Assembly: GCA_949289575.1 (NCBI GenBank)
Contig: CASEOG010000001.1
Coordinates: 24,671 to 88,670 of the forward strand
DNA: 64,000 nucleotides
Direction: 5' to 3'
From: an uncultured Spirochaetales bacterium
Lineage (GTDB): Bacteria > Spirochaetota > Spirochaetia > JAFGXN01
The position numbers were made by a program, and so were the translations under genes. The notes below the pieces were generated by a model. It ran no database searches, was not told the origin of the DNA, and saw only the letters and a list, made by a program, of their open reading frames with translations. Shown here in pieces: positions 12,585-40,003 of the stretch. How positions within the stretch are numbered: position 1 is the stretch's first letter; each line of letters starts with the position of its first letter.

Positions 12585-12626
12585 TAATTGATAATATACT
12601 TTAAAATCTTTTCAGAGGAAATTCTG

Positions 12627-13661: not shown

Positions 13662-13709
13662 AAAAAACATAGGACGTTTTTCGAGTTTTTTAGAAAACGT
13701 AGGACGTTT
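13653..13709 (+). repeat. Two tandem 27-bp imperfect direct repeats, each containing an AAAACGT-AGG-ACGTTT palindrome
   Basis: Copy 1 is gagttttttaaaaaacataggacgttt at 13653-13679 and copy 2 is gagttttttagaaaacgtaggacgttt at 13683-13709. They are 25/27 identical with a 30-bp period, and sit about 100 bp upstream of the GGDEF gene. Confidence 0.6.
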
Positions 13710-13806
13710 GTTCGGTCAGAACGGGAATCTGTTCTCCGCGGCATAAAAATTATCCTGTACAAACCGGAGAGAATATGCTAACATTGGAAATATCGGAAAT
13801 ATTTTT

Positions 13807-14808: not shown

Positions 14809-14820
14809 AACGGGAGGGAT

Positions 14821-15471: not shown

Positions 15472-17438
15472 GACGGACGGTTCTCTTTCTCTTTTTTCTG
15501 GCGGTGTCGGCCGGTGCGTTATGGGGCAATCCTTTTTTTTCGGCACCCGACGCGGGCAACACCGATTCGCCCTCGTCGGCAAACGAAACCACGGTGCAGC
15601 CGGCGCCCGTCCGTTCGCAGGCTGTTTCCGCCGATTCGGCACGGACGCAAAAACATCTGCGGGAAAAAATGGGCGATCTCCTCGACCGGATGGCTCATCC
15701 TCAGTCGCCTCGGGAACGCCGTTCGTTGCTGATTTCGCTGTTTCTGCTGTCGTTTGCCTACGGTGTGTTTCACGCTTCGGGGCCGGGGCACCGGAAAACG
15801 TTGGTTTTCGGACTTTATACGGGGCGCCGGGCGCCGGTTTGGGAACCGGCTCTGACCTCTTTTCTGCTGGCGTTTCTCCACGGCGGTTCGGCAGTCATTC
15901 TGATTCTTCTGTTTAAAGGGGTGGAAGGTTCGCTCGGACAGCGCATCGACCGGTTTGCTCTTTACATGGAAGGCTTTTCGTATCTGCTGATTATTCTTCT
16001 TGCCGTTGCCATTTTTGCCGGTGCGGCGGTCGAATATGCTGCTTTTTTAAAAGGACGTCAAAAGAAAGCCCGTTTTTCCGGTTATTTTCTTTTTCTTCTT
16101 TCGGGTCTCTATCCGTGTCCGGGAGCGGTGCTGGTGCTGATTCTCTCCTACACGCTCGGGATTCCGGCCTACGGTCTTTTTGCGGTGGCGGCAATGTCGC
16201 TGGGAATGGCTCTGCCGGTTGCGGCCGCCGGTTATCTGGCCTGGTTCGGCCGCGAAGGCATTTTTCTCGCCTGCCGTAAACGAGAGTCGCTTCTGCACCA
16301 TATCACATTCGGCGTCACCGCTTTCAGTTCGCTCTTTCTGATTGGATTTTCGATTTATATCGCGTCGCCCTTTTTCTCGTCGCTGATTCCCCGAAAACCG
16401 TTTTCTCCCGTTGCGGTCGAAACAGAGGCCGATTTACGCACCGTAACCGACTTACTGGGACGCACGGTTACGATTCCCTGCCGGGTCGAGACGGTCGCTA
16501 CCCTCAACAGTGCGGCTCGTCTGGTTGTTTATGCGGGGGCGGCGCACAAATTGTGCGGTGTTACCGAAACAGACCGGAAAGGGGTCGAGGGAATGCCCTA
16601 CTCGTATGTGAATAAACAGTTCTTTTCCGGTTTGACGCTGACCGGTTCGGGCGGCAGCAGCGATACGGTTTTTTCCGAAAATCTGGTGTTGCTCGACCCC
16701 GATGTCGTGTTTGCTTTCACCGGCGACCGAGTGAGACTGGATCGTCTTTCAAAACAGACCTCCCTTCCGATCATCGGTCTCTCCGCATCGGGGATGTTTG
16801 CCGACGATTTTCTCGAATCTCTGACACTCATCGGAACGGTAACCGGCTGCGAGGTCGAAGCGGCACGGGTGGTCGAAGCGTTAAAGGGGTGGCAGACCGA
16901 TTTGACGGTCCGAACGGAAGAAATTGACGACGAAGCAAAACCGACGGTTTACATGGGCGGCATGGGCTTTCGCGGTCCGCACGGGTTTGACGGAACCTGC
17001 GCCCTCTATCCCCCTTTTACCGTCATTGCAGCCGCCCATATTGCCGATTTACCGGGCCGCTCGGGGCCTTTTTTGATGAATCCCGAAACGGTGGCCGCCG
17101 CCGATCCCGATATTATTTTTTTAAATCCTTCCAACCTTCCTCTGATTCGTGAGGATTACAACCGTCACCCCGATTTTTACCGAAGCCTGAAAGCGGTTCG
17201 CGAGGGCCGTCTTTACAGTCAGGTTTCTTATAATTACAATTCGACCAATATGGAAATCGCCGTTGCCGATGCCTACTATGCCGGCACTGTTCTCTACCCC
17301 GAAGCCTTTGCCGATATCGACTTCGCCGCCAAGGCCGAAGAGATTTTCGAAACAATGCTCGGCTGCCGTTATCTGCCGGTACTGGATGCGGCCGGAATCG
17401 GATTTTCGAAACTGTCGCTCGACAAGGAGGCTCCGTGA
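15468..17438 (+). CDS. Fusion protein: NicO/RcnA-family nickel/cobalt permease domain plus a C-terminal TroA/FecB-like (Peripla_BP_2) substrate-binding domain
   Basis: 656 aa. The N-terminal 300 aa are polytopic and carry the NicO signature FHASGPGHRKT (HxxxPGHxK). The C-terminal 330 aa look like a class III substrate-binding protein (...PTVYMGGMGFRGPHGFDG..., ...DPDIIFL...). It is a single uninterrupted ORF. Confidence 0.6.
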   Translation: MRRTVLFLFFLAVSAGALWGNPFFSAPDAGNTDSPSSANETTVQPAPVRSQAVSADSARTQKHLREKMGDLLDRMAHPQSPRERRSLLISLFLLSFAYGVFHASGPGHRKTLVFGLYTGRRAPVWEPALTSFLLAFLHGGSAVILILLFKGVEGSLGQRIDRFALYMEGFSYLLIILLAVAIFAGAAVEYAAFLKGRQKKARFSGYFLFLLSGLYPCPGAVLVLILSYTLGIPAYGLFAVAAMSLGMALPVAAAGYLAWFGREGIFLACRKRESLLHHITFGVTAFSSLFLIGFSIYIASPFFSSLIPRKPFSPVAVETEADLRTVTDLLGRTVTIPCRVETVATLNSAARLVVYAGAAHKLCGVTETDRKGVEGMPYSYVNKQFFSGLTLTGSGGSSDTVFSENLVLLDPDVVFAFTGDRVRLDRLSKQTSLPIIGLSASGMFADDFLESLTLIGTVTGCEVEAARVVEALKGWQTDLTVRTEEIDDEAKPTVYMGGMGFRGPHGFDGTCALYPPFTVIAAAHIADLPGRSGPFLMNPETVAAADPDIIFLNPSNLPLIREDYNRHPDFYRSLKAVREGRLYSQVSYNYNSTNMEIAVADAYYAGTVLYPEAFADIDFAAKAEEIFETMLGCRYLPVLDAAGIGFSKLSLDKEAP

Positions 17439-19886: not shown

Positions 19887-20867
19887 TTATTTTTCGAAAT
19901 CGGCAAGCGGTTTCAGAATATTGCCGAGGGCGTAGATGCTGACGGCATACTCTTTGCCGCTTCCGGCGACCGTCACGGCAAAACGCTCTTCGCCGGCGGC
20001 GGCTGCCGAAACGCAAACCGTCTGCTTTGTCCCGTCACGGAATCCGAGAACCAGGGTGACCGCGGCGTTTTCGGCCGTCACCCCCGTTGCGGGAATCACC
20101 AAATCGGCTCCTTTCAGTTCCGTAATCTGGCGCACAAACGAGTCGACTCTCATTCCGTCAATCCCTTTATCGGAGCCTTCCGCTTTCCACACCAGCTCTT
20201 TATCGTTTTCGCTTCCGACCGTGCGGATCAGAGTGTAATCGAAGGTTCCGCCCTCTTCCAGCGGCGAAGTTCCTTTCACGCTCACCGACTGGACATCGCT
20301 GCTCTTCGAAGCGTCGGCAAACAGCTTTAAATTCACCCAGTGGGAACGCTGACCGTAAAGACTCATGCCCGGATCGGACGTCTCATAAACCTGCTTGTCG
20401 CCTTCGGCGCGCACATACCGGAAACCGGGACGGTCGGCCACCGCATTACCGAACAGAAGCAGAATTTCGCTGCCGTTGTCCGAAACCAGTTTAATATAAG
20501 CGGTTGCGCTTTCGGAGGCCACCCCGAACTGTCCGTATTTTTCTTCGTTGGCCGTAATTTTTTTACCGCGCGGCAAAGCGGCCACTGCCGACAGAAAGGC
20601 GGAGACCCGGCTTGTGTCGGCGGGCGCTGCCGTTCCGTCGTAATCGACCGCCCAGAGTCCCTCTTCGGTTTCGGTGACTGTGACGGTTTTCTCTTCGGAA
20701 AAGAGTTCGATTTGATTCACTTTTTTCCCGGAGAACGAGGCCAAAAGCGGTTCGTTCTGCGCCCGGCTGCTGCGGCAGTTTCCGGAAAAGAAGATGCCGA
20801 GCAGCAACGTCAGCGTCAATACGGCGCACAAAGACGCCAGCACAATGATTTTATTTCGGTCACTCAT
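19887..20867 (-). CDS. DUF4340-domain protein (accessory to a Gld-like ABC-2 exporter)
   Basis: 326 aa with an N-terminal membrane anchor. It is the last gene of an operon that also has ATPase, ABC-2 permease and GldG-like genes. Confidence 0.5.
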   Translation of the reverse strand: MSDRNKIIVLASLCAVLTLTLLLGIFFSGNCRSSRAQNEPLLASFSGKKVNQIELFSEEKTVTVTETEEGLWAVDYDGTAAPADTSRVSAFLSAVAALPRGKKITANEEKYGQFGVASESATAYIKLVSDNGSEILLLFGNAVADRPGFRYVRAEGDKQVYETSDPGMSLYGQRSHWVNLKLFADASKSSDVQSVSVKGTSPLEEGGTFDYTLIRTVGSENDKELVWKAEGSDKGIDGMRVDSFVRQITELKGADLVIPATGVTAENAAVTLVLGFRDGTKQTVCVSAAAAGEERFAVTVAGSGKEYAVSIYALGNILKPLADFEK

Positions 20868-22498
20868 CGGACACCTCCTTTACCGGCTTTCCGTTTTCTC
20901 AAAAAGATACGGACGGTACCGAATATGATGATGCACAGCGGCACCAGCGCAATGACAAAGACTTGAACGAAAATGAAATAGGCGCGACGCGCTTCGGGAT
21001 CCTGAATCCGGTCCAGCTGCGTATTGCGCTGCACCCGGGTTCTCAACTGCAGCAAATCTTCGTCGGCGGTCAGCCACTCGACCGCATTTTGGATGAAAGT
21101 GAAGTTCTGTTCCAGATTGATGCTGAACATGTTGTAGATTTGAACGGTCATCTGATTCTGCTGATCGACAACCGCGAAATCGGTATCGCCGACGACCAGA
21201 ATGCGTCCGACAGCGGTCGAAATATCCGACACCTGCTCGAATTCGTTTGCTTCACCCGGCCGTTTGGGAATTGTTTTGCCTTTAAAGAAGCTGTCGAAAT
21301 GACCGGAGAGTGCGGCAGCGACGGTATAGCGTGCCCGCGCCTGTTCCTGCGCCGTTACGGCCATCATGGCGGCCTGCGAAAAGTCAATACCGCTGTCCAA
21401 ACCGGCTGTCCAGGCTGTACGGGCAGTTTCGGCCAAAGTGACCGTTTCGATTTTATCGTTGTTCAGCACCGCATCGGTAAAGGTCAGCGGCGACGCCCAC
21501 AACAGGTTCAACCCGTTGAAAGAGGCCGTAATCGGATGGTTTTTATTGCCGCCGGTTCCGGGAACTTTGACAAAGTACGGGTACTGAACAATCGAAAAGG
21601 CGTTGCCGGTCGGCATCAAAGCCGCATTGCAGGATGTATCGGCCAAAAGCTGCTCTTCGATACGGATACCGCACGCTTCGAGCCAGTCGGCAACGGCAGT
21701 TTCGGTTAAGGGCGAACCGCTCATGCCGTACGGCGACAGCTGCGTTTGGTGGCGGTCGGTCAGCATCAGCAGCGATCCGCCCTGCAGCAGATACTGATCG
21801 AGAACCAGCTGCTGATATTCGCTGCCGCTTTCGCCGATGACAATCACCGCTTTAAACGTCGAATCGATTTTGGTTTCGGGGGCGATGGTTTCCACGGTGT
21901 AGAGGGCGCCGAGCACCTGATGCAGAAACGCCAGCTGATTGTCGTCGGTCAGACCGGCGGTTAACGGCAACAGTCCGATTTTCCGGTTTTCTTTGTAAAC
22001 CAGCTCTTTGATTTGGCGGTTGAGGTCGTACTCCAGCGTTTCGGTTTGTGTCACCGCGGGAATCACGCTCTGTTCGCCGAGATAGGATAAAATCAATCCC
22101 GAATAGGCGACCGAACGGGAAAACTCGGTCACATTGTTTTCGCTGATTTGCAGCGGCGCCAGTCCTTTGCGGGCCGGTTCGCCGGAAGCGCCCGCTTTGT
22201 CGGAATCGATAATTTCGACCGAGATTTTTCCTTTCGAGACGGACGCATATTCCGAAATGGTGTCTTCGATTTCTTTAAAGACGGGAACGCGGTCTTTCAG
22301 TTTCGACGACAAATAAAATGTGATATTGAGATGTTCGGGGATCTCTCTGACAATCTGTTTGGTAACGGGGGAAAGCGAGTATTTACGCGAGAAGGTCAAA
22401 TCCCACCGGAAAGCGTAGACGAGGCTGTTCAATCCGACCAGAAAGAGAAGCAGGACGGAGAGAACGGTTATCAGAATTTGGGTTCGTTTCATTTTCAT
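20864..22498 (-). CDS. GldG-like ABC-type transport auxiliary component
   Basis: 544 aa with transmembrane segments at both the N- and C-termini and a large extracytoplasmic domain. It sits after the ABC-2 permease. Confidence 0.55.
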   Translation of the reverse strand: MKMKRTQILITVLSVLLLFLVGLNSLVYAFRWDLTFSRKYSLSPVTKQIVREIPEHLNITFYLSSKLKDRVPVFKEIEDTISEYASVSKGKISVEIIDSDKAGASGEPARKGLAPLQISENNVTEFSRSVAYSGLILSYLGEQSVIPAVTQTETLEYDLNRQIKELVYKENRKIGLLPLTAGLTDDNQLAFLHQVLGALYTVETIAPETKIDSTFKAVIVIGESGSEYQQLVLDQYLLQGGSLLMLTDRHQTQLSPYGMSGSPLTETAVADWLEACGIRIEEQLLADTSCNAALMPTGNAFSIVQYPYFVKVPGTGGNKNHPITASFNGLNLLWASPLTFTDAVLNNDKIETVTLAETARTAWTAGLDSGIDFSQAAMMAVTAQEQARARYTVAAALSGHFDSFFKGKTIPKRPGEANEFEQVSDISTAVGRILVVGDTDFAVVDQQNQMTVQIYNMFSINLEQNFTFIQNAVEWLTADEDLLQLRTRVQRNTQLDRIQDPEARRAYFIFVQVFVIALVPLCIIIFGTVRIFLRKRKAGKGGVR

Positions 22499-22508
22499 CG
22501 GTTCTCTC

Positions 22509-23240
22509 CTATTTCCATTTTTTCAAAATCAGAACGCGGATATTCAAATACAAAAAGAGGATGGTCATTCCCGCAAAATAGATGAAATCGCGTGAATCGA
22601 GCACTCCTTTTTTGAAGCTGTCGAAATGGTGTGTCGCAAAAAGTGTATTGATGATGCGGGCCAAAGCGTTGGGCATTTCCACCATCATCGGGAAATAACC
22701 GCTGAGAACCAGAAACGCGAGAGCCAGAATCGAGACCAAAAAAGCGCTGATCTGATTGGAGCAGAGCGAGGAGAAAAACATGCCGACGGCGATGCAGAGG
22801 GCACCGAAAAGAGCGGTTCCCAGATATTGGCCGATCATCTCTCCCGGTTCGAAGGAACCGGTAAAGGCGGTCAAAAACGGCACCGGCAGTGTGAGCGCAA
22901 TCATAATCAGAAAGAGAACAAAGGCTCCGAAAAATTTCCCCAGCACCAGCTGCGTTTCGGTAAACGGCAGGGTCAGCAGAATTTCGTCCGATTTCATTTT
23001 CTTCTCTTCCGCCCAGAGCCGCATCGTCATGGCCGGAATCACGATGATGAAGAGAAACGGAAACGAGGAGAAATAGCCGCGCAGCGAGGCGTAGTTGCCG
23101 GCAAAAAAGCCGTTAAACAGGAAAAACCAGACCGAAGCGGCGGTTAAAAAGACAACAAAAACGATGTAAGCTATCGGCGAATTGAAATAGGTCTTCAATT
23201 CTTTTTTGACAATCGGTTGAATGGCACTGTGCATCCTCAA
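22509..23240 (-). CDS. ABC-2 family transporter permease (GldF-like)
   Basis: 243 aa with six transmembrane helices. Confidence 0.65.
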   Translation of the reverse strand: MRMHSAIQPIVKKELKTYFNSPIAYIVFVVFLTAASVWFFLFNGFFAGNYASLRGYFSSFPFLFIIVIPAMTMRLWAEEKKMKSDEILLTLPFTETQLVLGKFFGAFVLFLIMIALTLPVPFLTAFTGSFEPGEMIGQYLGTALFGALCIAVGMFFSSLCSNQISAFLVSILALAFLVLSGYFPMMVEMPNALARIINTLFATHHFDSFKKGVLDSRDFIYFAGMTILFLYLNIRVLILKKWK

Positions 23241-24172
23241 ACTCCTTCATGGGTCAGGCGGATAAAGATGTCTTCCAGCCCGATTTTTTCGAAATACATT
23301 TCGGCAATCCGGTAACGGTTTTTTACCGCCCAGTCAAACAGTTCCGGCGAACGCGATTCGGAGGTCAGCTGCACGGCAGCCGTGACCCTTCCGTTTTTGG
23401 CTTCTGCCGAGCGGACGGCCGTAACCGCTTCGCACTCTTTTAACCGTTCGGCAACGGCATCGGCGTCGTCGGCTTCGACTGCCAGATGAAGCACCGGCTC
23501 GCCTTTGAGGCTCTTGCCGATTTCTTCTGTGGTTCCTTCGGCCGCAATCAGTCCGTCGTTGACAATCAGAACACGGTCGCAGACCGCTTCGACTTCCTGC
23601 AGAATATGGGTCGAAAGCAGAACCGTCTTTTCTTTCCCGATTTTTTTTATCAGATTCCGGATTTCGATAATCTGATTGGGATCGAGTCCCGTTGTCGGTT
23701 CATCGAGAATCAGGATTTCCGGTTCGTGAAGAATCGCCTGTGCCAGACCGACCCGTTGCCGGTAGCCTTTCGACAGGTTGCCGATTTCTTTATACAGAAC
23801 CGATGTCAGACCGCATTCGGCCGCCGTTTTTTCGATCCGGGCGCCTTTCTCCGCCCCGTCGATACCGCGTGCTTCGGCTATAAAATTCAGATACTCGTAA
23901 ACATTCAGGTCGGTATAAACCGGCGCCATCTCGGGCAGATATCCGATTTGGTGTTTCACCTGAAGAGGTTCGCGAATGGCATCGTAGCCGTTGAGTGTTG
24001 CCGATCCGCCGTCCGGATAATGATAGCAGGTCAGAACCTTCATAATGGTCGTCTTTCCCGCTCCGTTGGGACCGAGCAGTCCCACAATTTCTCCTTTTCC
24101 GATTGAAAAAGAGACTCCTTTCACGGCGGGAAACGTTCCGTAATTTTTTACCAGATTTTTTACTTCGATCAT
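23237..24172 (-). CDS. ABC transporter ATP-binding protein (GldA-like)
   Basis: Walker A (GPNGAGKTT), signature (LSKGYRQRV) and Walker B (LILDEP). Confidence 0.9.
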   Translation of the reverse strand: MIEVKNLVKNYGTFPAVKGVSFSIGKGEIVGLLGPNGAGKTTIMKVLTCYHYPDGGSATLNGYDAIREPLQVKHQIGYLPEMAPVYTDLNVYEYLNFIAEARGIDGAEKGARIEKTAAECGLTSVLYKEIGNLSKGYRQRVGLAQAILHEPEILILDEPTTGLDPNQIIEIRNLIKKIGKEKTVLLSTHILQEVEAVCDRVLIVNDGLIAAEGTTEEIGKSLKGEPVLHLAVEADDADAVAERLKECEAVTAVRSAEAKNGRVTAAVQLTSESRSPELFDWAVKNRYRIAEMYFEKIGLEDIFIRLTHEGV

Positions 24173-24238
24173 GATCAGATCCCTTTCCCCTTGAGTCGAT
24201 TTTCTTTTTAAAACAATAAAAAAAACAATACGTTACAA

Positions 24239-25177
24239 TTAATCTTTATTTTTTACCGGAATTGCCATTCCGTCTTTTGTCAGAAAGGTCTGCGGGAACA
24301 GTTCGCGTGCTTCGGTCAGCAGCTGCTGCAAATCGCGGTGGGTATAACGCGGCGAATAGTGAATCAGTCCCATCCGTTCGATGCCTCCCGCCTCTGCCGC
24401 AATGCGCGCAGCCTGAGCCGATGTCAGATGCTTTTTCTCGGCGGCGCTGTCGGCCAAATCGGCGGTAAACATGCCTTCGCAAATGAAGAGGTCGGAGCCG
24501 GTCACTTCCGGAGCTATCGTCGGCAGATAAGCGGTATCGGTCACAAACGAAAAGCGGCAGCCGCGTCGGGGCGGCCCCAGTACCGTTTGCGGATCGACCG
24601 GTTCGCCGTTGCCGTTCATAACCGTTTCTCCCTGCTGCAACCGGGCCCAAAGCGGACCGCGAGGCACGCCGGCGGCTTCGGCAGCGGCCGGATCGAAAAC
24701 GCCGGGACGGGGGTCTTCGACCAGTTTATACCCGACACACACTTTCGAATGATTGAGCGGAAACGAAAAGACGGAGAAGTCGTCTCCGCGGAACACTTCC
24801 CCCGGAACCGACGGATTCTCGATTTCTTTAACAATAATTTCGTAGTTGATATACATATCCAGAACCCGCCGGCTGGTTTCGATGTACTCTTTGATTTTCG
24901 GCGGACCGATGATATAAAGCGGCTCGTCGCGGTCGACCTGTGCCGAAAGCATCAGCAACCCGGGGATTCCGGTGATGTGGTCGGCATGGGTATGCGAAAC
25001 AAAAATCGCCGAAATTTTTTTCCATTTCAGATTCAGATTTCTCAGTGAAATTTGGGTTCCTTCCCCGCAGTCGAACAGAAAGAGATACCCTTCCCGACGC
25101 AGCAGAACACTGGTTAAAAATCGGTTGGGCAACGGCATCATGCCGCCGGTTCCCAGGACAAATGTTTCAAAGCTCAT
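24239..25177 (-). CDS. rnz: Ribonuclease Z / metallo-beta-lactamase-fold tRNA 3' endonuclease
   Basis: The N-terminus reads ...FVLGTGGMMP..., the metal-binding motif is VSHTHADH, and the length (312 aa) matches short-form RNase Z. Confidence 0.7.
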   Translation of the reverse strand: MSFETFVLGTGGMMPLPNRFLTSVLLRREGYLFLFDCGEGTQISLRNLNLKWKKISAIFVSHTHADHITGIPGLLMLSAQVDRDEPLYIIGPPKIKEYIETSRRVLDMYINYEIIVKEIENPSVPGEVFRGDDFSVFSFPLNHSKVCVGYKLVEDPRPGVFDPAAAEAAGVPRGPLWARLQQGETVMNGNGEPVDPQTVLGPPRRGCRFSFVTDTAYLPTIAPEVTGSDLFICEGMFTADLADSAAEKKHLTSAQAARIAAEAGGIERMGLIHYSPRYTHRDLQQLLTEARELFPQTFLTKDGMAIPVKNKD

Positions 25178-27653
25178 GAACAGGCTGCTCCTTTGCGGTT
25201 TCCGTGTTTTCCGTCGGCGGGGTCGGGGCCGTTCCGGCGGTCAGCCGAAAAACAATTTCGCCTTTCTGCATCCGGCACTCGACTTTATCGGCTTCGGGAT
25301 GTCTCAAACACTCCAATGCCAGCGGATCTTCGATGCGGGTACGGATGGCGCGCCGCATGGTTCGGGCACCGTAAACGGGATCGAAACCGGTTGCCACCAA
25401 TTCGTCGCGCACGGCGGCGGCTATCTTTAAGGTTATCCCGTTTTTGGCCAGCCGTTCGACCGTCTCGCGACACAAAAGATCGGCAATCTGTCGAATCTGC
25501 GGCTCTTTGAGGCTGTCGAATACGACGATTTCATCCAGACGGTTGATAAACTCGGGAGCCAGAAACCGTTTGGCCTCCGCCATGGCCGACTGTTTAATTT
25601 CGGCATAACTTTTCCACCCCTTTTCCTGCGAAAAGCCGAGCTGTCCCGCGCGGTTTAAATCTTTCGACCCGAGATTACTGGTCATGATAATGACCGCATT
25701 ACGGAACGAGACTTTGTGTCCGAGACTGTCAATCAGTTCTCCCTCTTCGAGAACCTGCAGCAGCAGATTAAAGACATCGGGATGCGCTTTTTCGATTTCG
25801 TCCAGCAAAACAACGCAGTACGGACGGCGGCGCACCATTCCGGAAAGCATTCCGCCCTCTTCGAAACCGACGTAACCGGGAGGCGCTCCGACCAGTTTGG
25901 ACACATTGTGTTTTTCCATATAATCGGACATATCGACACGAATCAGCGCATCGGAACTGCCGAAGAGTGTTTCGGCCAAAGTTTTGGCCAGATAGGTTTT
26001 TCCGACACCGGTCGGCCCCAGAAAAAGAAACGAACCCGACGGCCGCTGCGGCGAAGCGAAACCGACACGCGAGCGGCGGATAGCCGAAGCAACGGCGGCC
26101 ACCGCTTTGTCCTGTCCGATAACAACACGGTTCAGCTCCTCTTCCAGATGAAGCAGCCGGTGAGCCTCGCTTTCGGCCAGTTTTTCGGCGGGAATTCCCG
26201 TAGCCGTCGATACCACACGCAAAATGTCGTCTGCCGTGACAGGCAGCCGCTCTTCACTGCGTTCCCGATGCCAGACAGCAACGGCCGCAGCCAGCTCCCC
26301 TTCCAGCCGTTTGATGCGGTCGCGCTCTTTGGCTGCCTCTTCAAAGCGCTGTTCGTCAACCAGAATATTTTTCCTGAGCTTACGCTGACGGATTTTTTCC
26401 TCCAGGCGAACCACCGTTTTCGGCTTTTCGCTTTGTCGAATCCGCTTTTCGGCACCCGCTTCGTCCAAAAGGTCGATGGATTTATCCGGCTGAAACCGTT
26501 CGGTGATATAGCGTTGGGAAGCGTTAACGGCCGTTTCGACCGCCTCCCCGGTATAGACAACATGATGATGATCTGCGTAACGGCCGACTATGCCGTAGAG
26601 AATTTTTTTGGTGGCCTCTTCGTCCGGCTCATCGATATAAACATTCTGAAACCGTCGTTCCAGGGCGGAATCTTTTTCGATGCGGCGGCGGTATTCTTTC
26701 ACCGTTGTGGCTCCGATACACTGCAGCTCGCCGCGGCTGAGAGGCGGCTTCAAAATATTGGCCGCATCGATGGCCCCTTCCGAACCGCCTGCCCCGACAA
26801 TGGTGTGAATCTCGTCAATAAATAAAATGATGTTCCCCTTTTCCATCACAACCTGAAGCAGCTTCTTCAGACGGTCTTCGAACTCGCCCCGGTATTTGGT
26901 TCCGGCGACAATGGCTCCCATATCGAGATAGAGAATCCGGCGGTTCTGCAGGCCTTCGGGAACATTTCCGGCCGCAATCCGCTGCGCCAGTCCTTCCACC
27001 AAAGCGGTTTTACCGACGCCCGGTTCTCCGAGGAGAATCGGGTTGTTTTTCCGACGGCGGCTGAGAATTTTCATAACCCGCTCGATCTCTTTTTCGCGTC
27101 CGATAATCGGATCTCCCTCGCCCCTTTTCGCTTCGGCAACCATATCTTTGGAAAACAGAGAAAGAAATTCCTCTTTTTTTCGGTCCTCTTCGGTTTCACG
27201 AACGGGCCTGCGAACCGTGTCGTCGGTTTCATTCGCCTTAAAGAAAACAAGATTCCCGTTTTCGATCAGGGGACGGCATATCGAATCCGCGGTTTCGGCC
27301 GCCGTACGGAAAAGAAGCGGCACACCGGCTCTGACTCCGTTCGGAAGGAGAGCCAGCTTTCCGGAAAGAATATCCAGATAATTGCGGTAACGTTGCGAAT
27401 AGGGAGGATCCGAAACCGATTCATCGGTTATCGATTCGAAAAACCGTTTCAGCCGCAAAATCAGCTTCGACCGCGATCTTTCGGAGTCAAAACAGTCGTT
27501 TAATTTTTCTTTATCCAAAGCGGCATAAATTAAATGCTCGGGTTCGATTCGGCCCGAATGAAATTCAAGGGCCCGTTCGCGCACTTCGTTGAGCAACAGC
27601 TGCTCGGCGTCGTAATTCAGTCTTTGATGCACAAAACCTCCGCTTTTCCGCAA
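25167..27653 (-). CDS. clpC: Clp ATPase, ClpC/ClpA-type (two AAA+ modules)
   Basis: 828 aa with a Clp_N region, a first AAA+ module (GEPGVGKT) and a second (GPTGVGKT), and sensor motifs. Which start codon is used is uncertain; the ORF as called overlaps the upstream gene by 37 bp. Confidence 0.85.
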
Positions 27654-28672
27654 AAAATATCTTTCAGAAGATGTGCCCGCAAACTGTCGTACATCATCGG
27701 TTCCGACGATCCGGTAAAACGGTTACGAAATCGGGTCAGATAACTTTCCTTTAAAAAATCGAAAAGCCAGTTGATTGTCGAACAGGGATGATCGGCCACT
27801 CCGGCCAAAACGGCCATTCTGACTGTTTCCAAAATGTCGTACGATTCGGCCAGTGTCAGCTTCATCGAAAGATTAATCCGATCGAGAGCATCCCGATAAC
27901 GGGCCCGGATCTGCTCCGTCATACCGTTATGCCAGTCACGCCGCTTCAATCGTTCCATTTTGACAATCGTGCCGAGATTTCCCGAAAACCGGTTCATCAT
28001 TTCCTCTTCGGTTTCACCGTTTAATGCCGTGGTCGAGACCGATAAAATTCCGCAAACGGCTTCTTTCAGCACCGGACAGATGTACGGTTCGATTTTCAGA
28101 TTCTCGGCGGCCGCTATTTTCAGCAGGCGCGATCCCTCGTCCGTCTGATTGAGGGCGGGAAGAGAAAGCAGCACTTCGGCTTCGAGTCCGGCTCCGGTTC
28201 GGGTACGGTGGCTGTTCAGATAACCGTAGCGGAGCGATACCGCATAAGGAAAAATCTTTTCCAGGCGGCGGTCGATATCACTCAGACTTTCGAGAGAACG
28301 GAACGGGTCGAATTCGGACGAAACGATTCTCAATTCGATGCCCTCCCGATTCAGAAAAAAAAGTGTTGCTCCGTTTTTATCGGTATAAAAAAAGACCGGA
28401 ACGGTCATACGTCCGTAGTCGTCGGGCAAAAGTCCCCGATCGCGATAATAAAAAAATTCGTCATCGCTCATTTTTTCCGAACGGTGCAGAGTCCACTCTC
28501 CTTCCGGCAGACGGTCCATCCGCTCCGTGACCGCACCGAGAAAACGGCGGCTCTCCGCTGCCTGCATCCGTGACGGGAACAGATATCCGGTACAGTTCCG
28601 AAAGAGCGACATTCGCAAGCGGATAACGCAATCACTGTATGAAATAAAATTACTGTCGTGCATCATATCCAT
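27617..28672 (-). CDS. McsB-like ATP:guanido phosphotransferase (protein-arginine kinase homologue) with a substituted signature motif
   Basis: 351 aa. The N-terminus (...VIRLRMSLFRNCTGYLFPSRM...) aligns with the McsB N-terminus. The signature region reads YGYLNSHRTRTGAGLEAEVLLSLP where canonical McsB has GYLTSCPTNVGTGLRASV..LP. Confidence 0.55.
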   Translation of the reverse strand: MDMMHDSNFISYSDCVIRLRMSLFRNCTGYLFPSRMQAAESRRFLGAVTERMDRLPEGEWTLHRSEKMSDDEFFYYRDRGLLPDDYGRMTVPVFFYTDKNGATLFFLNREGIELRIVSSEFDPFRSLESLSDIDRRLEKIFPYAVSLRYGYLNSHRTRTGAGLEAEVLLSLPALNQTDEGSRLLKIAAAENLKIEPYICPVLKEAVCGILSVSTTALNGETEEEMMNRFSGNLGTIVKMERLKRRDWHNGMTEQIRARYRDALDRINLSMKLTLAESYDILETVRMAVLAGVADHPCSTINWLFDFLKESYLTRFRNRFTGSSEPMMYDSLRAHLLKDIFCGKAEVLCIKD

Positions 28673-28676
28673 CCGA

Positions 28677-29183
28677 TTATTCCTGCCGGAGAGCCTCTTT
28701 TTTATGCTCTATTTCAGTTTTTAAACGTTGCGCCTCGGCATAATTTTCGTTTTCCACTGCCGATTTCAGCCGGATCTCCAGATCGGGCAATTCCTGTACC
28801 GCAATCCGGCAAATTTCCATTGCTTCGGGAATCCGGCCTTTATAAATTTTATCATGAAAAAAAGAATCGTTCAACTCTTTTTCGAAAGTCACGTAACACT
28901 GCGGACAACCGGCCGTCTCTTTTTTCATCAACTGTCCCAAAGAGATTCCGCACCGGGGACAATAGACCGTCTGTGCGGGCGCTTCGCCGGAAGAGACTGT
29001 CTCCTTCATCGATCCGACGGCCCGAAAAATCGTATCCAGCACTTTTTCGAGTTGAGGATTTTTCTGATCGATACCCCGCTCTGCCGCACACTCGGCACAA
29101 AGATTGAGGTCCGATGTCTGGTTGCCCCGTGTCTGTTTAATATGAATGACGGCATCGTTTTTCTTGCAAATATCGCACTTCAT
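28677..29183 (-). CDS. McsA-like protein (four CxxC zinc-finger pairs plus a UVR domain)
   Basis: Cysteine pairs at CDIC...CAEC and CPRC...CPQC, and a C-terminal UVR-like helix (...ENENYAEAQRLKTEIE...). Confidence 0.6.
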   Translation of the reverse strand: MKCDICKKNDAVIHIKQTRGNQTSDLNLCAECAAERGIDQKNPQLEKVLDTIFRAVGSMKETVSSGEAPAQTVYCPRCGISLGQLMKKETAGCPQCYVTFEKELNDSFFHDKIYKGRIPEAMEICRIAVQELPDLEIRLKSAVENENYAEAQRLKTEIEHKKEALRQE

Positions 29184-29184
29184 T

Positions 29185-30486
29185 TTACAAATCCTTCATG
29201 ACATCCAAAGGTTTTCGTCCGGCAGCGGCAACAGCCGGAATAAGCGCCGCCGCACCCGAACTGAAGACTGTCAGCGTCGCAATCAGAAAAATATGACGAC
29301 GGCTGATCACCAACGGTATATTTTCAAGATAATACTCTTTATTCAGAATTTCAATCTTATTTTGAAAAAATCCGTCGCCGTTTAACCCGGACAGCAATCC
29401 GTAGAGAAACGAGAATACCGAATCGGCCGTTTCCGTTAATGTATTTAACTGCACGGCCGCCAGCAAACCGAGACTCAAACCGATCACCGTACCGCATATC
29501 CCGATCAGAAAACCGGCCGATAAAAACGAAAGGAAAACAGTCCGCGACGATACGCCGAGACTTCGCAAAAGGGCAACGGCGCTCCGTTTTTCCAGTTCGA
29601 ATGCAACCATAATGGAGAAGATATTGACTGCAGCCAGCAGAATAATCAGTACGGCTATCGATAAAATAAGGGTAAACGTACTGTCGAGATTTTCCATAAG
29701 CGACCGGTTTTTTTCTTTCCACGTACGAAAGGTAATCCCTTCACTGCCGAAAAGACGGTTTAACTCCGCCGCCGCTTTTGATGCGGAAATTTCGTCGGGG
29801 GAATCGAGTTTGATTCCCAGAACCGTATGCCCCTCTCTTCCGAACAGCGACCGTGCCCGATCGTATCCGATGTAAGCCGTCATGTGGTCCAGTTCGTAAT
29901 AACCTGTCGTAAAAACCCCGGTGACGGTAAATGTCACGGCCTGCAGAAAAGACCGGCCTCCCGCTTCCCGGTTAAGCAGCATCCGAATGCGGTCGCCGGC
30001 TTTCAGGCTCAGCGATTCGGCAATGCCGTCACTGACAAGAAGGCTGTCCGAAGAACTCAAATCAAATCGGCCGTCCAGAATCTGAAAATATTTGCGAAAT
30101 CCGGCATCGCTGTCGTACAAATCGGCCGGAACGCCTTTCAATGCGGCCGCATTACGGCCTTTATCCGAAGCCAGCAGCACATGAGTTTCCAGAATCGGAA
30201 CAGCCGATCGGATTCCGTCCCGCCCGGTAATCCGGTTTGCCCAATCGGCAGCCCGTTCGGAAAAATCGGTGTGATACGACTGCCCCGTAATGTGAAAAGA
30301 GCCGATTTCCAGATACCGCCCGACAATTCCGCTGATCATCCCGGAAGCGGTCTGAATGGAAACGACAACCGGAATCAGAGAAATAACGATGCCGAAAACG
30401 GCACCGCGGACTTTTCCGTTATCTCTGCGTCCGCCGAGAGGCACAAAAAGCATCCGAAAAGCGTAAAAAAAAGCGCCCGTCTTCAT
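29185..30486 (-). CDS. LolE/LolC-like ABC permease (FtsX/MacB family)
   Basis: 433 aa with an N-terminal transmembrane segment, a large periplasmic domain and a C-terminal FtsX four-helix bundle. Confidence 0.7.
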   Translation of the reverse strand: MKTGAFFYAFRMLFVPLGGRRDNGKVRGAVFGIVISLIPVVVSIQTASGMISGIVGRYLEIGSFHITGQSYHTDFSERAADWANRITGRDGIRSAVPILETHVLLASDKGRNAAALKGVPADLYDSDAGFRKYFQILDGRFDLSSSDSLLVSDGIAESLSLKAGDRIRMLLNREAGGRSFLQAVTFTVTGVFTTGYYELDHMTAYIGYDRARSLFGREGHTVLGIKLDSPDEISASKAAAELNRLFGSEGITFRTWKEKNRSLMENLDSTFTLILSIAVLIILLAAVNIFSIMVAFELEKRSAVALLRSLGVSSRTVFLSFLSAGFLIGICGTVIGLSLGLLAAVQLNTLTETADSVFSFLYGLLSGLNGDGFFQNKIEILNKEYYLENIPLVISRRHIFLIATLTVFSSGAAALIPAVAAAGRKPLDVMKDL

Positions 30487-31175
30487 AATTTCTGCAATCT
30501 GCCCTGTGTCAGTACGTAATGAATATCGCCCTTCCCGGCCAGCCGGGAATCGTGAGTGACCAGAATCAGACTTTTCCCCTCTTTTTCGACTACATCGAAC
30601 AGCAGCTCTTCGACCCGCTCCGAATGAGACTCATCGAGGTTTCCCGTCGGTTCGTCTGCCAGAATCAGCGGCGGATTATTGATTAATGCCCGCGCTACGG
30701 CAATACGCTGACACTCTCCGCCCGACAGCTGAGCCGGGAAATGGTCGGCCCGGGCCGTCAATCCGACACGTTCCAAAAGGAAACGGGCTCTCTCTTTTGC
30801 CGTTTTGGCAGGCTCGCCGGAAAGATAGGCCGGCAGCCAGATATTTTCCAAAGCGGTAAAATCTTCCAGCAAATGGTGAAACTGAAAAACAAAACCGATA
30901 CATTCGCGCCGATACGAGGTCAGTTCTCTTTCGCTCAGTCGGGAAAGTTCGTATCCGCACATCGAAACCTCCCCTCCGCTCAGGGCATCCAGACCGGAAA
31001 TCAGATTCAGAAAGGTTGTTTTTCCGCATCCGCTGGGACCGGTAACCGTCACTTTCTCCTTCTTCCCCAGCACAAAATCGATCCCGTTCAGAATTGATAT
31101 TTTTTCGTTTCCCATTTCGTATGTTTTCGAAAGATTCTCGACACGAAGCAGGACCTCGCTTTTATTCTCATTCAT
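30483..31175 (-). CDS. LolD-like ABC ATP-binding protein
   Basis: Walker A (GPSGCGKTT), signature (LSGGECQRIAVARAL) and Walker B (ILADEPTGNLD). Confidence 0.85.
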   Translation of the reverse strand: MNENKSEVLLRVENLSKTYEMGNEKISILNGIDFVLGKKEKVTVTGPSGCGKTTFLNLISGLDALSGGEVSMCGYELSRLSERELTSYRRECIGFVFQFHHLLEDFTALENIWLPAYLSGEPAKTAKERARFLLERVGLTARADHFPAQLSGGECQRIAVARALINNPPLILADEPTGNLDESHSERVEELLFDVVEKEGKSLILVTHDSRLAGKGDIHYVLTQGRLQKL

Positions 31176-32418
31176 AACGCATTACCTCACACGGTTTAAT
31201 TTCGGTCAGTCTCGCGGTTGCCGCATAGGCGGCTGCCGCCGATGCCGCCAGACTGAAACAGGCAATCGCCGTCACCTCTTTAAAATCAATCCGTATCGGC
31301 AAGTCATAGAAGAATCTCAAATCGGGCATAAGGGACGCGGTAACGGGTGCGGAATAAAACAGAATTTCGATAAGAGAAATCAGTTCCGAAAAATGAATGG
31401 TAACAAACAGACCGGTAACCGTTCCCCAGAAAACGGCACGAATTCCCATCAGAATCCCGACAAACAGAAACGAAAGCCGGATTTGTCTCGGCGAAACACC
31501 GATAGCCTTAAAGACTGCAATTTCTTTCTGCTTCTCGAAAATCAGTCGTTTGATCATAAAATAAAGATTCAGAATGACAACGGCCGCAACGAGTCCGAGA
31601 AGAAAGGACATGGCAAATTTCTCCAGTTTCAGCGCACTGAAAAAAGAGCGGTGGGAATCCCGCCAGCTTTTTACGACGGCATCGGCCGGCAGATACGGTC
31701 TGAGGGCAGCGGTCGTCCGATCATCGGCAAAACGGTTTTTCAGTTTTATTCCGTAAATCAGAGGGTTTACGGAAAATCCGTTGCTCCAGCTGCCGGTACC
31801 GGTGAGAATCAGCAGTTCATCGATTTCCCGAAAAGCCGTTTCATAGATACCGCCGACCGTAAATGTCTTTACGGGGGGACTGACAAGAGAGAATCCGGAG
31901 GCACTCAATGAAATCAGGTTAATTTTATCTCCGACTAGAAGGCCCATCCGCAAAGCCGTCGTGCGGCTGACGGCCACTGTATCCGGCTGACCGAAATCGA
32001 AACGGCCTCGGACTTCCCGAATTTGCGAAGCCATTCCCGGATCGATTTCTTTCCATTCGGGAGGAACGGCCCGCAGCAGATATCCGTAAAAGCGGCCGTT
32101 GCGGCCGGCCATCACCGTCTGGGTTTCGTAAAACGGCATGACCGAAACGACATTGGTGTCGCGTCGGAGAGTCTCAAGGCGGTCGTCATCCAAAACCGTT
32201 CCTTCAATCCGCAGATGATACGAAGAGACCTCGACAATGGCATTGATATAATCGGACTGAAGACCGTTCATAATACTCAATATCAGAATCAGGGCAAAAA
32301 TGCCGCAGGCGAGCGTCCCTGTCAGCAATCCGCTGAGAAGTCTTTTCCCCCGCGAACGGGAACGGAAAAGAATCCGCCAGGCCATAAATGCGGGTTGCGC
32401 CATCCGGTACGGGCTCAT
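31168..32418 (-). CDS. LolC/LolE-like ABC permease (FtsX/MacB family)
   Basis: 416 aa with the same architecture as the 29185-30486 gene. Confidence 0.7.
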   Translation of the reverse strand: MSPYRMAQPAFMAWRILFRSRSRGKRLLSGLLTGTLACGIFALILILSIMNGLQSDYINAIVEVSSYHLRIEGTVLDDDRLETLRRDTNVVSVMPFYETQTVMAGRNGRFYGYLLRAVPPEWKEIDPGMASQIREVRGRFDFGQPDTVAVSRTTALRMGLLVGDKINLISLSASGFSLVSPPVKTFTVGGIYETAFREIDELLILTGTGSWSNGFSVNPLIYGIKLKNRFADDRTTAALRPYLPADAVVKSWRDSHRSFFSALKLEKFAMSFLLGLVAAVVILNLYFMIKRLIFEKQKEIAVFKAIGVSPRQIRLSFLFVGILMGIRAVFWGTVTGLFVTIHFSELISLIEILFYSAPVTASLMPDLRFFYDLPIRIDFKEVTAIACFSLAASAAAAYAATARLTEIKPCEVMRYE

Positions 32419-33701
32419 GATCGGCGCCTCCGTTTTGCCGGTTTCTCTTCTTCGGCAGAGGGATTTTCTCCGGCAGAGGAATTTTCTCCGGCAGAGGAAT
32501 TTTCTCCGGCAGAGGAATTTTCTCCGGCAGAGGGATTTTCTCCGGCAGAGGGATTTTCTCCGGCAGAGGGATTTTCTCCGACAGAGGGATTTTCTCCGGC
32601 AGAGGGATTTTCTCCGACAGAGGGATTCTCTCCGGCAGAGGGATTCTCTCCGGTTTTTGTCTCATAAAAAAGAAGTTCGTTATCGACCTCTATATTGTCG
32701 CGGAATACGATTCTGATAAACGGTTTGCCGTCTCGATAAACAATTTCGGTATAATCCTGGGCCGACTCTCCGTAAATAAGTTCTCTGGTCAGCACTTCGT
32801 TGACATAAACAAGACTGCCCGCAACATTTCCATCTTTGTCATATTCATAAGTGACCCGCTCGCGCCGTCCGTCGGAACTGATATATTTTTCGGAAACACG
32901 GTTGTCGGCATCGTAAGTGTAATCGATAACGATCTTCGATGAACCGATATAAGTGACCTCTCTGGAAATACGGTTTTCTTTATCAAAGTCACGCACAATC
33001 TTTTTATCACCGGAAAAATCTTCCTCGACGGCACGCCCGTCTTCATCCTGTTCGATTTTACGATAGACCAGTTCGTCACCGATCCATTCTTCGGACGAGA
33101 CCAACTTCCCTTTATAATAGTTATACTGAAAAGAGTATCCGCTGTACGTATGAATCTGATTGCGCAAATCGAAATCGAGAAACCCGTATACCGAATAGGT
33201 GACTTTTCCGTTTTCGTAGGTATTGGTGGCTCGCAGCAGCCGACCGTTGGAACCGCGGGTATAGGTTGTCGTATAAAGAACTTTCTCGTCGGGTGTTTTG
33301 ACAACCGTTGCACTGAGGTTACTTCCCGAATACCGGTATTCCCGGACTTCGGAAATCCGGTTCTCGAAATAAATCTCCTCTTTTTGAAGACGAAAATTAT
33401 TGAAGTAAGAGGTCAGAAGTTTGCGGGATCCGCTGAATTCCGTTTCCTGATATCGGCCCGGATACATCCGTCGGTTATCGTACGTCCGTTCCCACCGGCG
33501 AATTTCTTTCTGTTTCTCGAAAAGCTGACGAATGACCGCATTATCGAGATCTTCGACAGTCACGACATATTCGAATTCATCGAAACGGGAAACACCGATC
33601 TGATTATAGACGGCCCCCGACTTGTCCGCACGATAATAGGTGACCTGCGCCGATAAAGGGAAATAACAGAATAAGATAATAACGGAAAAAAGATATTTCA
33701 T
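32415..33701 (-). CDS. Exported repeat protein with a C-terminal (GENPS[A/V])x11 tandem hexapeptide array
   Basis: The N-terminal signal peptide is MKYLFSVIILFCYFPLSAQ. The body has tyrosine/glycine-rich beta-repeat-like segments and the C-terminus holds 11 GENPSA/GENPSV/GENSSA units. Its stop overlaps the LolC-like start by 4 bp. Confidence 0.6.
   Translation of the reverse strand: MKYLFSVIILFCYFPLSAQVTYYRADKSGAVYNQIGVSRFDEFEYVVTVEDLDNAVIRQLFEKQKEIRRWERTYDNRRMYPGRYQETEFSGSRKLLTSYFNNFRLQKEEIYFENRISEVREYRYSGSNLSATVVKTPDEKVLYTTTYTRGSNGRLLRATNTYENGKVTYSVYGFLDFDLRNQIHTYSGYSFQYNYYKGKLVSSEEWIGDELVYRKIEQDEDGRAVEEDFSGDKKIVRDFDKENRISREVTYIGSSKIVIDYTYDADNRVSEKYISSDGRRERVTYEYDKDGNVAGSLVYVNEVLTRELIYGESAQDYTEIVYRDGKPFIRIVFRDNIEVDNELLFYETKTGENPSAGENPSVGENPSAGENPSVGENPSAGENPSAGENPSAGENSSAGENSSAGENSSAGENPSAEEEKPAKRRRRS
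32454..32651. repeat. 11 head-to-tail copies of an 18-bp tandem repeat (ggcagagg[g/a]att[t/c]tctcc), in-frame coding
   Basis: Counted directly. The variants are ggcagagggattttctcc, ggcagaggaattttctcc, gacagagggattttctcc and g[g/a]cagagggattctctcc. Confidence 0.9.
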
Positions 33702-34609
33702 TCTCCCAAAAAGCGGTCCAAAAACTGCTCCGTATCAAACGGTTTCAGATCTTCGTAGCCCTCTCCCACTCCGGTAAACGCAATCGGCAACCCGAACCGG
33801 CGACAGACCGCAAAAAGGTTTCCGCCGCGCGAAAGCGAATCATATTTTGTCAGAATCACGGCATCGATACCGACTGCCTCGTGAAAGATTTCCGCCTGCG
33901 AAACGCTGTTCTGTCCCGTTGTGGCATCAAGGACCAGAATTTTTCTCAACCGGCAGCCGGCAGCCTTGTTTTCGATAATTTTATTGATTTTTTTCAGCTC
34001 TTCGATTAAATGGGATTTTGTATGCATCCGTCCGGCAGTATCGGCAAGAATCAGAGAGCTGTTTTTTGCCTTTGCGCTGGATATGGCATCGTAAATGACC
34101 GCACCGGGATCGGCCCCCGGGGCGTGGCGAACCACCCGTATCCCCAACCGGTCGCCGTGTACCGCCAGCTGATCGATGGCGGCTGCACGGAACGTATCGC
34201 CCGCCGCCAAAACAATTTTCTCTTTCCCGATTTCCGCGGCGTAAAAGTGCGCCAGTTTTGCAATCGTGGTTGTTTTCCCCACGCCGTTAACACCGAGAAT
34301 CAGATCGATATTCAAAACATCGGGATCGGGACGTAACGAATCGGTCAGCAGCGATTCCCTCAGAATGTCGCGTAAAATCCGCCGGGCTGCCGCCTCATCC
34401 CGCGTTTTTTCGTTTTTCAACCGCGTTTTTAATTCTTCCGTGACCGAAACGGCCAGTCTGACGCCCATATCCCCTTCGACCATCAAATCTTCCAGCTCCG
34501 TATAAAATGCATCGGAAAGCGACGAAGAAGAAAGCAGCGAAAACAACCGGAACCCTTTCGATTCCCGCGAACCCGTTGTCTCCTGTTTATTTCTGCCGAA
34601 TAACTTCAT
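33698..34609 (-). CDS. ftsY: Signal recognition particle receptor FtsY (short form, NG domain only)
   Basis: SRP-GTPase motifs: G1 GVNGVGKTTT, G3 DTAGR and G4 TKYD. Confidence 0.85.
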   Translation of the reverse strand: MKLFGRNKQETTGSRESKGFRLFSLLSSSSLSDAFYTELEDLMVEGDMGVRLAVSVTEELKTRLKNEKTRDEAAARRILRDILRESLLTDSLRPDPDVLNIDLILGVNGVGKTTTIAKLAHFYAAEIGKEKIVLAAGDTFRAAAIDQLAVHGDRLGIRVVRHAPGADPGAVIYDAISSAKAKNSSLILADTAGRMHTKSHLIEELKKINKIIENKAAGCRLRKILVLDATTGQNSVSQAEIFHEAVGIDAVILTKYDSLSRGGNLFAVCRRFGLPIAFTGVGEGYEDLKPFDTEQFLDRFLGE

Positions 34610-39995: not shown

Positions 39996-40003
39996 GTGCC
40001 CTC

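Follow-up and report, generated by a model that had tools for sequence, protein, structure and literature searches.

A McsB homologue that lacks most McsB catalytic residues is maintained beside McsA and ClpC in a gut spirochaete

To our knowledge, no bacterial protein arginine kinase other than McsB is known. The writing of phosphoarginine degrons and the service of McsB as an adaptor of the unfoldase ClpC are hard to separate, and in Bacillus the adaptor role appears to be tied to the kinase. A 64,000-nucleotide stretch of DNA from an uncultured Spirochaetales bacterium (GenBank assembly GCA_949289575.1, contig CASEOG010000001.1, positions 24,671 to 88,670; hereafter the window) raises the question of what a McsB homologue might do once residues of its active site have been replaced. 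On its minus strand, at 25167-29183, the window carries open reading frames (ORFs) for a McsA-like, a McsB-like, and a ClpC-like protein, and a sequence-only reading of this DNA had noticed substitutions in the phosphagen kinase signature of the second, which it took as a sign of either altered chemistry or an adaptor role for a pseudokinase. The gene order that it gave, mcsA-mcsB-clpC after LolCDE-like genes and before an RNase Z-like gene, agrees with the ORFs and with Pfam scans. Searches of the literature for a McsB pseudokinase, for spirochaete McsB, and for a Treponema guanido phosphotransferase returned nothing relevant. We conclude that a gut spirochaete retains a three-gene McsA-McsB-ClpC protein-degradation module, and we report that its McsB homologue has kept the fold of the family and lost most of its catalytic residues while evolving under purifying selection.

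The McsB-like protein matched the Pfam family ATP-gua_Ptrans with 57 bits, and a phmmer search against solved McsB structures (B. subtilis and Geobacillus) aligned residues 13-337 with an E value of 2e-10. Moreover, hhalign comparison of a profile of the protein's clade with a profile of 63 canonical McsBs aligned 330 columns with a probability of 99.9% and an E value of 1.9e-35. Structure prediction, a check proposed with the sequence-only reading, indicated a full-length McsB fold: the AlphaFold2 model, for which an alignment of 100 sequences was used, had a predicted local distance difference test score (pLDDT) of 90.8 and a predicted template-modeling score of 0.88, and its best Foldseek matches in the PDB were the full-length McsB structures 6tv6 and 6fh1, with a template-modeling score (TM) of 0.79 over about 333 columns at 20% identity. 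Arginine and creatine kinases matched only the catalytic domain of the model. Both a catalytic domain and a C-terminal dimerization domain, the two-domain architecture of McsB, were found, and the Pfam family McsB_C (PF27454) gave no match in the protein at E<=0.01. All three proteins of the module score far below the NCBIfam cutoffs, the McsB-like protein reaching 84.9 bits against 385 and 68.3 bits against 500 (models NF002194 and NF053707), and an orthologue, MDY3939412.1, is labeled "hypothetical protein" by NCBI. We conclude that the McsB-like protein is genuinely homologous to McsB and has its fold.

The 63 canonical McsBs, about 40% identical to one another, share 26 invariant columns, and a profile alignment, likewise proposed at the outset, mapped which of these are retained: 10 are kept in the McsB-like protein and 16 are replaced. 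Reference numbering follows B. subtilis McsB and was checked on C167, R190/R194, and R337/D338 (PMC11046695, PMC8370763). In the kinase signature, YLNSHRTRTGAGLEAEV stands opposite YLTSCPTNVGTGLRASV in the HMMER alignment, and the profile-profile alignment agrees, which bears out a register that had been set by eye. Five Arg residues of McsB (R29, R31, R125, R176, and R207) are equivalent to R124, R126, R229, R280, and R309 of arginine kinase, in which Arg126, Arg229, and Arg309 bind phosphates and Glu225, Glu314, and Cys271 hold the guanidinium (PMC11075012, PMC11492440). Only R29 is kept, as R20; the other four phosphate-binding residues read S22, E113, E164, and E195, such that three of the four lost Arg residues are replaced by Glu at columns that are invariant in the canonical set. 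The catalytic site of McsB consists of C167 and the NEEDH motif (PMC11046695), and both are lost, as is E212. The NEEDH segment reads LNREG, with N108 opposite E120, whereas the counterpart of E121 depends on the register (R109 in hhalign and MAFFT, E110 in phmmer), as does that of D122 (E110 or a gap). P168 is replaced by R156, and a new P196/C199/P200 motif is invariant across the clade.

The sequence-only reading had singled out two substitutions, the Cys of the signature to His and the phosphate-binding Arg of GTGLRAS to Glu. Both are real, with H155 opposite C167 and R176 replaced by an E164 that is invariant in the clade, but they belong to a larger set that also includes R31, R125, R207, E212, and most of NEEDH, and the His is itself not a conserved feature. 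His155 as a substitute nucleophile was rejected because the position is H, L, R, or T within the clade. At the phosphoarginine receptor site, for which the McsB mutant is R337A/D338A (PMC8370763), the alignment places Y328 opposite R337, and D338 and R341 are kept as D329 and R332, both of them clade invariant. We conclude that the loss of McsB catalysis is well supported by the alignments, and we infer that the protein would be unable to bind the phosphates of ATP or to activate a guanidinium group and would therefore be inactive as a kinase.

A gene that has lost its catalytic residues could be decaying or could be retained in another capacity. The clade of the McsB-like protein consists of 8 clusters at 90% identity and is represented by only two sequences at 50% identity among 1.84 billion proteins, beyond which scores drop from 598 to 143 and then to 119 bits. 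In an alignment of nine sequences (the window protein and the 8 clusters, with identity down to 44%), there were no frameshifts or stops, lengths were 351 to 356 amino acids, and 94 of 351 columns were invariant, including S22, E110, E113, and E164. Among the acidic replacements, E166 was found in 8/9 sequences and E195 in 7/9. Clade-invariant stretches unlike canonical McsB comprise residues 169-203, a KMERLKRR segment, and most of the C-terminal domain. The replaced catalytic positions were not clearly more conserved than the background (6/16 invariant, compared with 94/351 overall), and thus we claim conservation for the conserved glutamates only. The ratio of nonsynonymous to synonymous substitution rates (dN/dS) for the mcsB-like gene was 0.11 to 0.12 at a dS of about 1, compared with 0.09 for clpC and 0.04 to 0.055 for rnz, and mcsB-like was the fastest-evolving gene of its block, with 44% identity to the P0008 orthologue compared with 69% for ClpC, 65% for McsA, and 81% for RNase Z. 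The intact ORFs, the invariant columns, and the low dN/dS together argue that the gene is not a pseudogene. We conclude that it is well supported that the mcsB-like gene was freed from catalytic constraint and yet remains under purifying selection.

A Cys-x-(K/R)-D ending was common to spirochaete McsB-like proteins, reading VLCIKD in the window protein (27617-27650), VVCIKD, and KCSRD (P0009; L012:4958-6016), and the other representatives of McsB-like proteins in the retrieved set all lacked it.

The N-domain of ClpC reads phosphoarginine through two pockets defined by E32 and E106, one of which also contains T7 (PMC12583610), and the fate of those residues in the window ClpC was another check proposed at the outset. 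The first 163 residues of the ClpC-like protein gave no PDB match by sequence, and its N-domain gave no Pfam match, Clp_N included, even at E<=10. Alignment by hhalign to the B. subtilis N-domain, the sequence of which was checked and is identical to 5hbn, covered 29 columns with a probability of 3%. A diverged double Clp_N emerged only when other spirochaete ClpCs were used as intermediates in the alignment and a structure was modeled. The AlphaFold model, run with database ClpC proteins, had a pLDDT of about 90 for residues 1-130 and resembled ClpC and ClpC1 N-domains loosely (TM 0.5 to 0.6, E 1e-4, root-mean-square deviation 4 to 5 Å). Site 1 (T7/E32) reads N6/E32 and site 2 (T81/E106) reads S79/V104, with the second GTEH motif replaced by AGVP; a double Clp_N with both phosphoarginine sites is thus not what the window encodes. 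The ClpC orthologues of the clade (P0157-P0172) all lack Clp_N in precomputed Pfam lists, whereas more distant full-length ClpCs have it. We conclude that the phosphoarginine-reading N-domain of ClpC is remodeled and that its second-site motif is lost.

The partners of the McsB-like protein are otherwise well preserved. The McsA-like protein aligned along its entire length with B. subtilis McsA (8wtb_B) with an E value of 1.2e-8, and the four CxxC pairs that had been recognized by eye were all located (C3/C6, C29/C32, C75/C78, and C93/C96), which retains 8/8 zinc cysteines in two four-Cys zinc fingers. The G-x-IP linker (KGRIPE opposite AGKIPK) and the C-terminal UVR-type coiled coil are kept as well, although both profile matches fell short of their cutoffs (18.4 bits against 21.5 for Pfam UVR and 69 bits against 210 for NCBIfam McsA). 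The ClpC-like protein matched B. subtilis ClpC with 730 bits over residues 164-808, and its two AAA+ modules carry both Walker A/B sets, with Walker A at 202 and 539 and pore loops KYRG (246) and GYVG (586) in the numbering of the 821-residue form, a short M-domain with a conserved Phe, and the (V/L)GF loop for ClpP docking. The shorter form, which starts at GTG 27632 and is the one used in public gene calls, is likelier than the one that starts at TTG 27653; the seven extra residues of the latter owe their conservation in orthologues solely to an out-of-frame overlap with the VLCIKD tail of McsB. We conclude that the ClpC core is canonical and, to judge from its motifs, catalytically intact and probably active. 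A set of ClpC-type proteins of about 656 residues (P0174-P0194, one named Spirochaetia), without any N-domain and 57% identical to the AAA+ core of the window ClpC, may constitute a class of their own among ClpC paralogues.

Related contigs were Spirochaetia metagenome-assembled genomes (MAGs), and they indicated that both the gene order and the decay of McsB extend beyond the window. The module lies in a 13-gene block, ftsY-hyp-lolC-lolD-lolE-mcsA-mcsB-clpC-rnz-ABC-ABC2-gldG-DUF4340 (window 19887-34609, minus strand), the order of which is kept in loci L001-L004, L006, and L012 (the last in a 3.87-Mb genome) and partly in L009, so that lolCDE-mcsA-mcsB-clpC-rnz synteny is found at 7 other loci. 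The order is kept across spirochaete genomes with only about 23 to 50% identity in McsB and ClpC. Within the window the genes of this conserved operon are tightly packed: a 1-nucleotide (nt) spacer separates lolE from mcsA and a 4-nt spacer separates mcsA from mcsB, mcsB overlaps clpC by 16 nt (counted from the GTG start), and the clpC stop overlaps the RNase Z-like gene by 11 nt.

The McsBs of these loci form a graded series. L011 McsB keeps R29, R31, E121, D122, H123, R125, and R176 and lacks C167 and E212; L016 McsB keeps NEEDH and carries C167K and R176K; L012 McsB has NDTDH in place of NEEDH together with C167S, R176N, and R207S; L009 McsB carries R31S, R125S, and R176E; and L004 McsB (P0009) carries R29K, R31E, R125T, and R176K. 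The syntenic orthologues in L012, L011, L009, and L004 all lack C167 and E212, and several lack R176, but Glu at R125, R176, and R207 alike is found only in the window clade, which stands at the extreme of the series. A Treponema sp. MAG (L015:681-6514, GCA_031283575.1) has lolCDE, a 75-bp spacer, and then a clpC with Clp_N, without mcsA or mcsB, which suggests that the pair was lost completely in some spirochaete lineages. The GTEH motif of ClpC site 2 is lost only in L004 and the window clade, and because it is intact in L009, L011, L012, and L016, the covariation of N-domain remodeling with McsB decay is suggestive and not strict. Among 156 representative McsB-like clusters, a sample biased by its retrieval with a profile of the clade itself, 70 had all five canonical motifs and 34 had none, and degenerate catalytic motifs appear to be common outside the canonical group.

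One way in which these observations could be reconciled is if the McsB-derived pseudokinase and McsA together serve ClpC as an adaptor or regulator that needs no phosphorylation, and we consider this the probable explanation. The McsA/McsB complex is described as a ClpC adaptor that binds the N-domain, and the proposal extends that role (PMC12583610). The pseudokinase would be made and maintained together with a conserved McsA-like partner and an intact ClpC that carries the ClpP-docking loop. McsA would bind it through the second zinc finger, as in Firmicutes, where McsB is bound by that finger together with the loop after it (PMC11046695). The resulting complex would dock on, or signal to, the remodeled ClpC N-domain, and no phosphoarginine tags would be written for that domain to read. 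Of the two options that the sequence-only reading had offered, a pseudokinase is therefore the one favored, with the adaptor role itself, and the binding of McsA, inferred.

Several points weigh against that explanation. The adaptor function of B. subtilis McsB is said to depend on its kinase activity, in a report attributed to Kirstein et al. from 2007, and thus a phosphorylation-free adaptor role would be without direct precedent. In the phmmer register, E110 may represent a retained catalytic Glu; R29, R34, and N35 are kept; and new Arg residues (R18, R109, R115, R156, and R158) lie near the former active site. Finally, L009 McsB looks equally dead, and yet the GTEH motif of its ClpC is intact.

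The new Arg residues could indicate that the protein still phosphorylates arginine or another guanidino compound through a rewired site, with R18, R109, R115, R156, and R158 binding phosphate and E110 as the catalytic base. The McsB fold is fully preserved, R115 lies two residues past the lost R125 on the same strand, R156 and R158 fall within the signature loop, and E110 is invariant and opposite E121 in one register. A working kinase of this kind is nonetheless very unlikely. The rewired set was rejected as none of its Arg residues is invariant: R18 is Glu and R109 is Gln in P0008, R115 is Ser in P0004, R156 is Leu, Gln, or Val elsewhere, and R158 is Leu in P0006 and P0007. By contrast, the two Glu replacements E113 and E164 are invariant, and the columns of the lost Arg, Cys, Glu212, and Asn170 residues are invariant in the canonical McsBs. 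We know of no active phosphagen kinase with three Arg-to-Glu reversals in the triphosphate pocket together with loss of the Cys, Glu212, and Asn170. Altered chemistry, the other option that had been raised for this protein, is accordingly disfavored.

At the other extreme, the protein could be a relic without function that is in the course of being lost, retained only through translational coupling in an essential operon. Rapid evolution relative to the rest of the block, the Treponema sp. MAG in which clpC directly follows lolCDE, and the "hypothetical protein" label of the orthologue are what such a relic might leave, but a dN/dS similar to that of clpC, constant length without frameshifts or stops, invariant stretches that are new relative to canonical McsB, and a confident AlphaFold2 fold argue for a folded, selected protein, and we regard a relic as improbable to the same degree as a rewired kinase. 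The acidic residues that replace Arg could instead line a cleft that binds a cation (free arginine, a polyamine, or a metal) or Arg/Lys-rich proteins, such that the protein is a ligand or peptide sensor that regulates a target other than ClpC and the gene order is a relic. Synteny alone is no proof of a functional link, as the block also holds unrelated genes (lolCDE, rnz, and an ABC transporter). However, mcsA, mcsB, and clpC are still adjacent in the different genomic context of L016, the start of clpC overlaps the stop of mcsB, and the ClpC N-domain is most diverged in those lineages whose McsB is most degenerate; a sensor detached from ClpC is unlikely, if somewhat less so than the other two. 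We conclude that all three are less likely than a pseudokinase that serves as an adaptor or regulator of ClpC, and that the finding is computationally solid and, on the evidence of sequence and models, mechanistically suggestive.

How such an adaptor might work can be proposed only tentatively. The former ATP/guanidinium cleft, lined by E110, E113, and E164 and in most members by E166 and E195, might bind unmodified Arg-rich client segments or a basic patch of the remodeled ClpC N-domain. McsB would then be a reader or scaffold where it was once a writer, and its complex with McsA would deliver clients to ClpCP without a phosphoarginine mark. We hold this specific version to be doubtful, though less so than any of the three explanations set aside above.

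Comparison with known systems places the module closest to the McsA-McsB-ClpC(P) system of Bacillota (B. subtilis, G. stearothermophilus, and S. aureus), with which it shares the identity and order of the three proteins, the McsB fold, both McsA zinc fingers and the coiled coil, and the short M-domain and ClpP-docking loop of ClpC. It differs in the replaced invariant columns of McsB (four Arg residues, C167, NEEDH, and E212 among them), in a ClpC N-domain without the second GTEH motif or a Pfam Clp_N match, and in its position after lolCDE without ctsR or a CtsR box. Chlamydia also has McsAB orthologues, a pair outside the Firmicutes, alongside ClpC, but there mcsAB lies apart from clpC, and chlamydial ClpC degrades phosphoarginine-casein (PMC10128030). 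MecA and MdfA, like the proposed adaptor, bind the N- or M-domain of ClpC and activate or target it without covalent tagging (PMC12583610); they are unrelated in sequence and fold to the McsB-like protein, whose interaction with ClpC is a proposal. Arginine and creatine kinases share the catalytic-domain fold (Foldseek E about 1e-13, TM about 0.55), whereas the window protein carries a McsB-type C-terminal domain and lacks both their N-terminal specificity domain and their catalytic Arg, Glu, and Cys residues.

Table 1. Positions in the window of the module genes, their diagnostic segments, and the adjoining genes
Feature	Positions	Strand	Basis
McsB-like predicted pseudokinase, 351 amino acids, phosphagen-kinase-type domain and C-terminal helical (dimerization-type) domain	27617..28672	-	Pfam PF00217, AlphaFold2, Foldseek, hhalign
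McsB-like residues 18-26, RLRMSLFRN opposite SSRIRLARN; R29 kept as R20, R31 to S22	28595..28621	-	alignments
McsB-like residues 107-115, LNREGIELR opposite (M)NEEDHIRI; NEEDH lost, H123 to G111, R125 to E113	28328..28354	-	alignments
McsB-like residues 150-168, GYLNSHRTRTGAGLEAEVL opposite GYLTSCPTNVGTGLRASVM; C167 to H155, N170 to R158, R176 to E164	28169..28225	-	alignments
McsB-like residues 193-204, KIEPYICPVLKE opposite VVRGIYGEGSE; R207 to E195, E212 to V201	28061..28096	-	alignments
McsB-like C-terminal helical domain, conserved tail ...VLCIKD	27620..27928	-	alignments, AlphaFold2, Foldseek
McsA-like protein, 168 amino acids, two zinc fingers and C-terminal UVR-like coiled coil	28677..29183	-	alignment to 8wtb_B
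McsA-like zinc finger 1 (C3, C6, C29, C32)	29088..29177	-	CDICKK...CAEC, aligned to McsA Z1
McsA-like zinc finger 2 (C75, C78, C93, C96)	28896..28961	-	CPRCG...CPQC, aligned to Z2 of 8wtb_B and 8gqd_E
ClpC-type double-AAA+ unfoldase, 828 amino acids from TTG 27653, 821 from GTG 27632	25167..27653	-	alignment to B. subtilis ClpC
Diverged ClpC N-domain, residues 1-130 of the 821-residue form	27243..27632	-	AlphaFold2 model, intermediate alignments
ClpC N-domain repeat 1 motif, IEPEH opposite B. subtilis IGTEH; E32 kept, T31 to P	27534..27548	-	alignment
ClpC N-domain repeat 2 motif, AGVP opposite GTEH; E106 to V104	27318..27329	-	alignment
LGF tripeptide opposite VGF, ClpP-docking loop of B. subtilis ClpC	25632..25640	-	alignment
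LolC/LolD/LolE-like ABC transporter genes, upstream, translationally coupled	29185..32418	-	Pfam MacB_PCD+FtsX, ABC_tran, MacB_PCD+FtsX
RNase Z-like metallo-beta-lactamase gene, downstream of clpC	24239..25177	-	Pfam Lactamase_B_2, Lactamase_B

The regulatory setting of the Bacillota operon is not found here. The absence of ctsR, remarked on in the sequence-only reading, was borne out by Pfam scans, in which no CtsR, HrcA, or ClpP family was found among the ORFs of the window, and the whole window contained no CtsR box with up to 2 mismatches and no CIRCE element; lolE sits directly before mcsA. Promoter and terminator scans between 19.5 and 37.5 kb gave counts close to the shuffled expectation. 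The surrounding genes of the window (che, grpE-dnaK-dnaJ, rnf, prf, ftsY, pgk, and tpi) are those of ordinary core chromosome, and further downstream of the RNase Z-like gene lies a GldA/F/G-type ABC system. The lolCDE-like genes are part of the conserved block, and we do not assume a functional link between them and mcsA-mcsB-clpC. The grpE-dnaK-dnaJ genes (2352-6107, plus strand) directly follow cheX without hrcA upstream, and as CIRCE is also absent throughout, HrcA, the classical target of McsB, is not evident in the window. Four ORFs of 309 to 499 amino acids gave no Pfam match at E<=0.01 (32415-33701, 44337-45836, and 14455-15642 on the minus strand and 39210-40139 on the plus strand); one of these, of 428 amino acids and located between ftsY and lolC, keeps its position in all related loci. 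The G+C content is 0.426 at 12001-14000 and at 46001-48000, compared with about 0.50 elsewhere in the window, and these 2-kb stretches, which hold a DUF5655 gene and a gene for a tetratricopeptide repeat protein, may be small acquired segments.

If McsB has indeed exchanged the role of writer for that of reader or scaffold, the module would descend from the phosphoarginine degron system but do without phosphorylation, and spirochaetes would have reached that state by degrees, through McsBs that are near canonical, degenerate, dead, and finally lost. As only 70/156 McsB-like clusters have all five motifs, "protein arginine kinase" labels outside Bacillota should not be read as evidence of phosphoarginine signaling. 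A conserved kinase-dead McsB, together with its graded spirochaete orthologues, would amount to a natural separation-of-function allele, one that could show what McsA and McsB contribute to ClpC without phosphorylation and which features of the ClpC N-domain coevolve with them.

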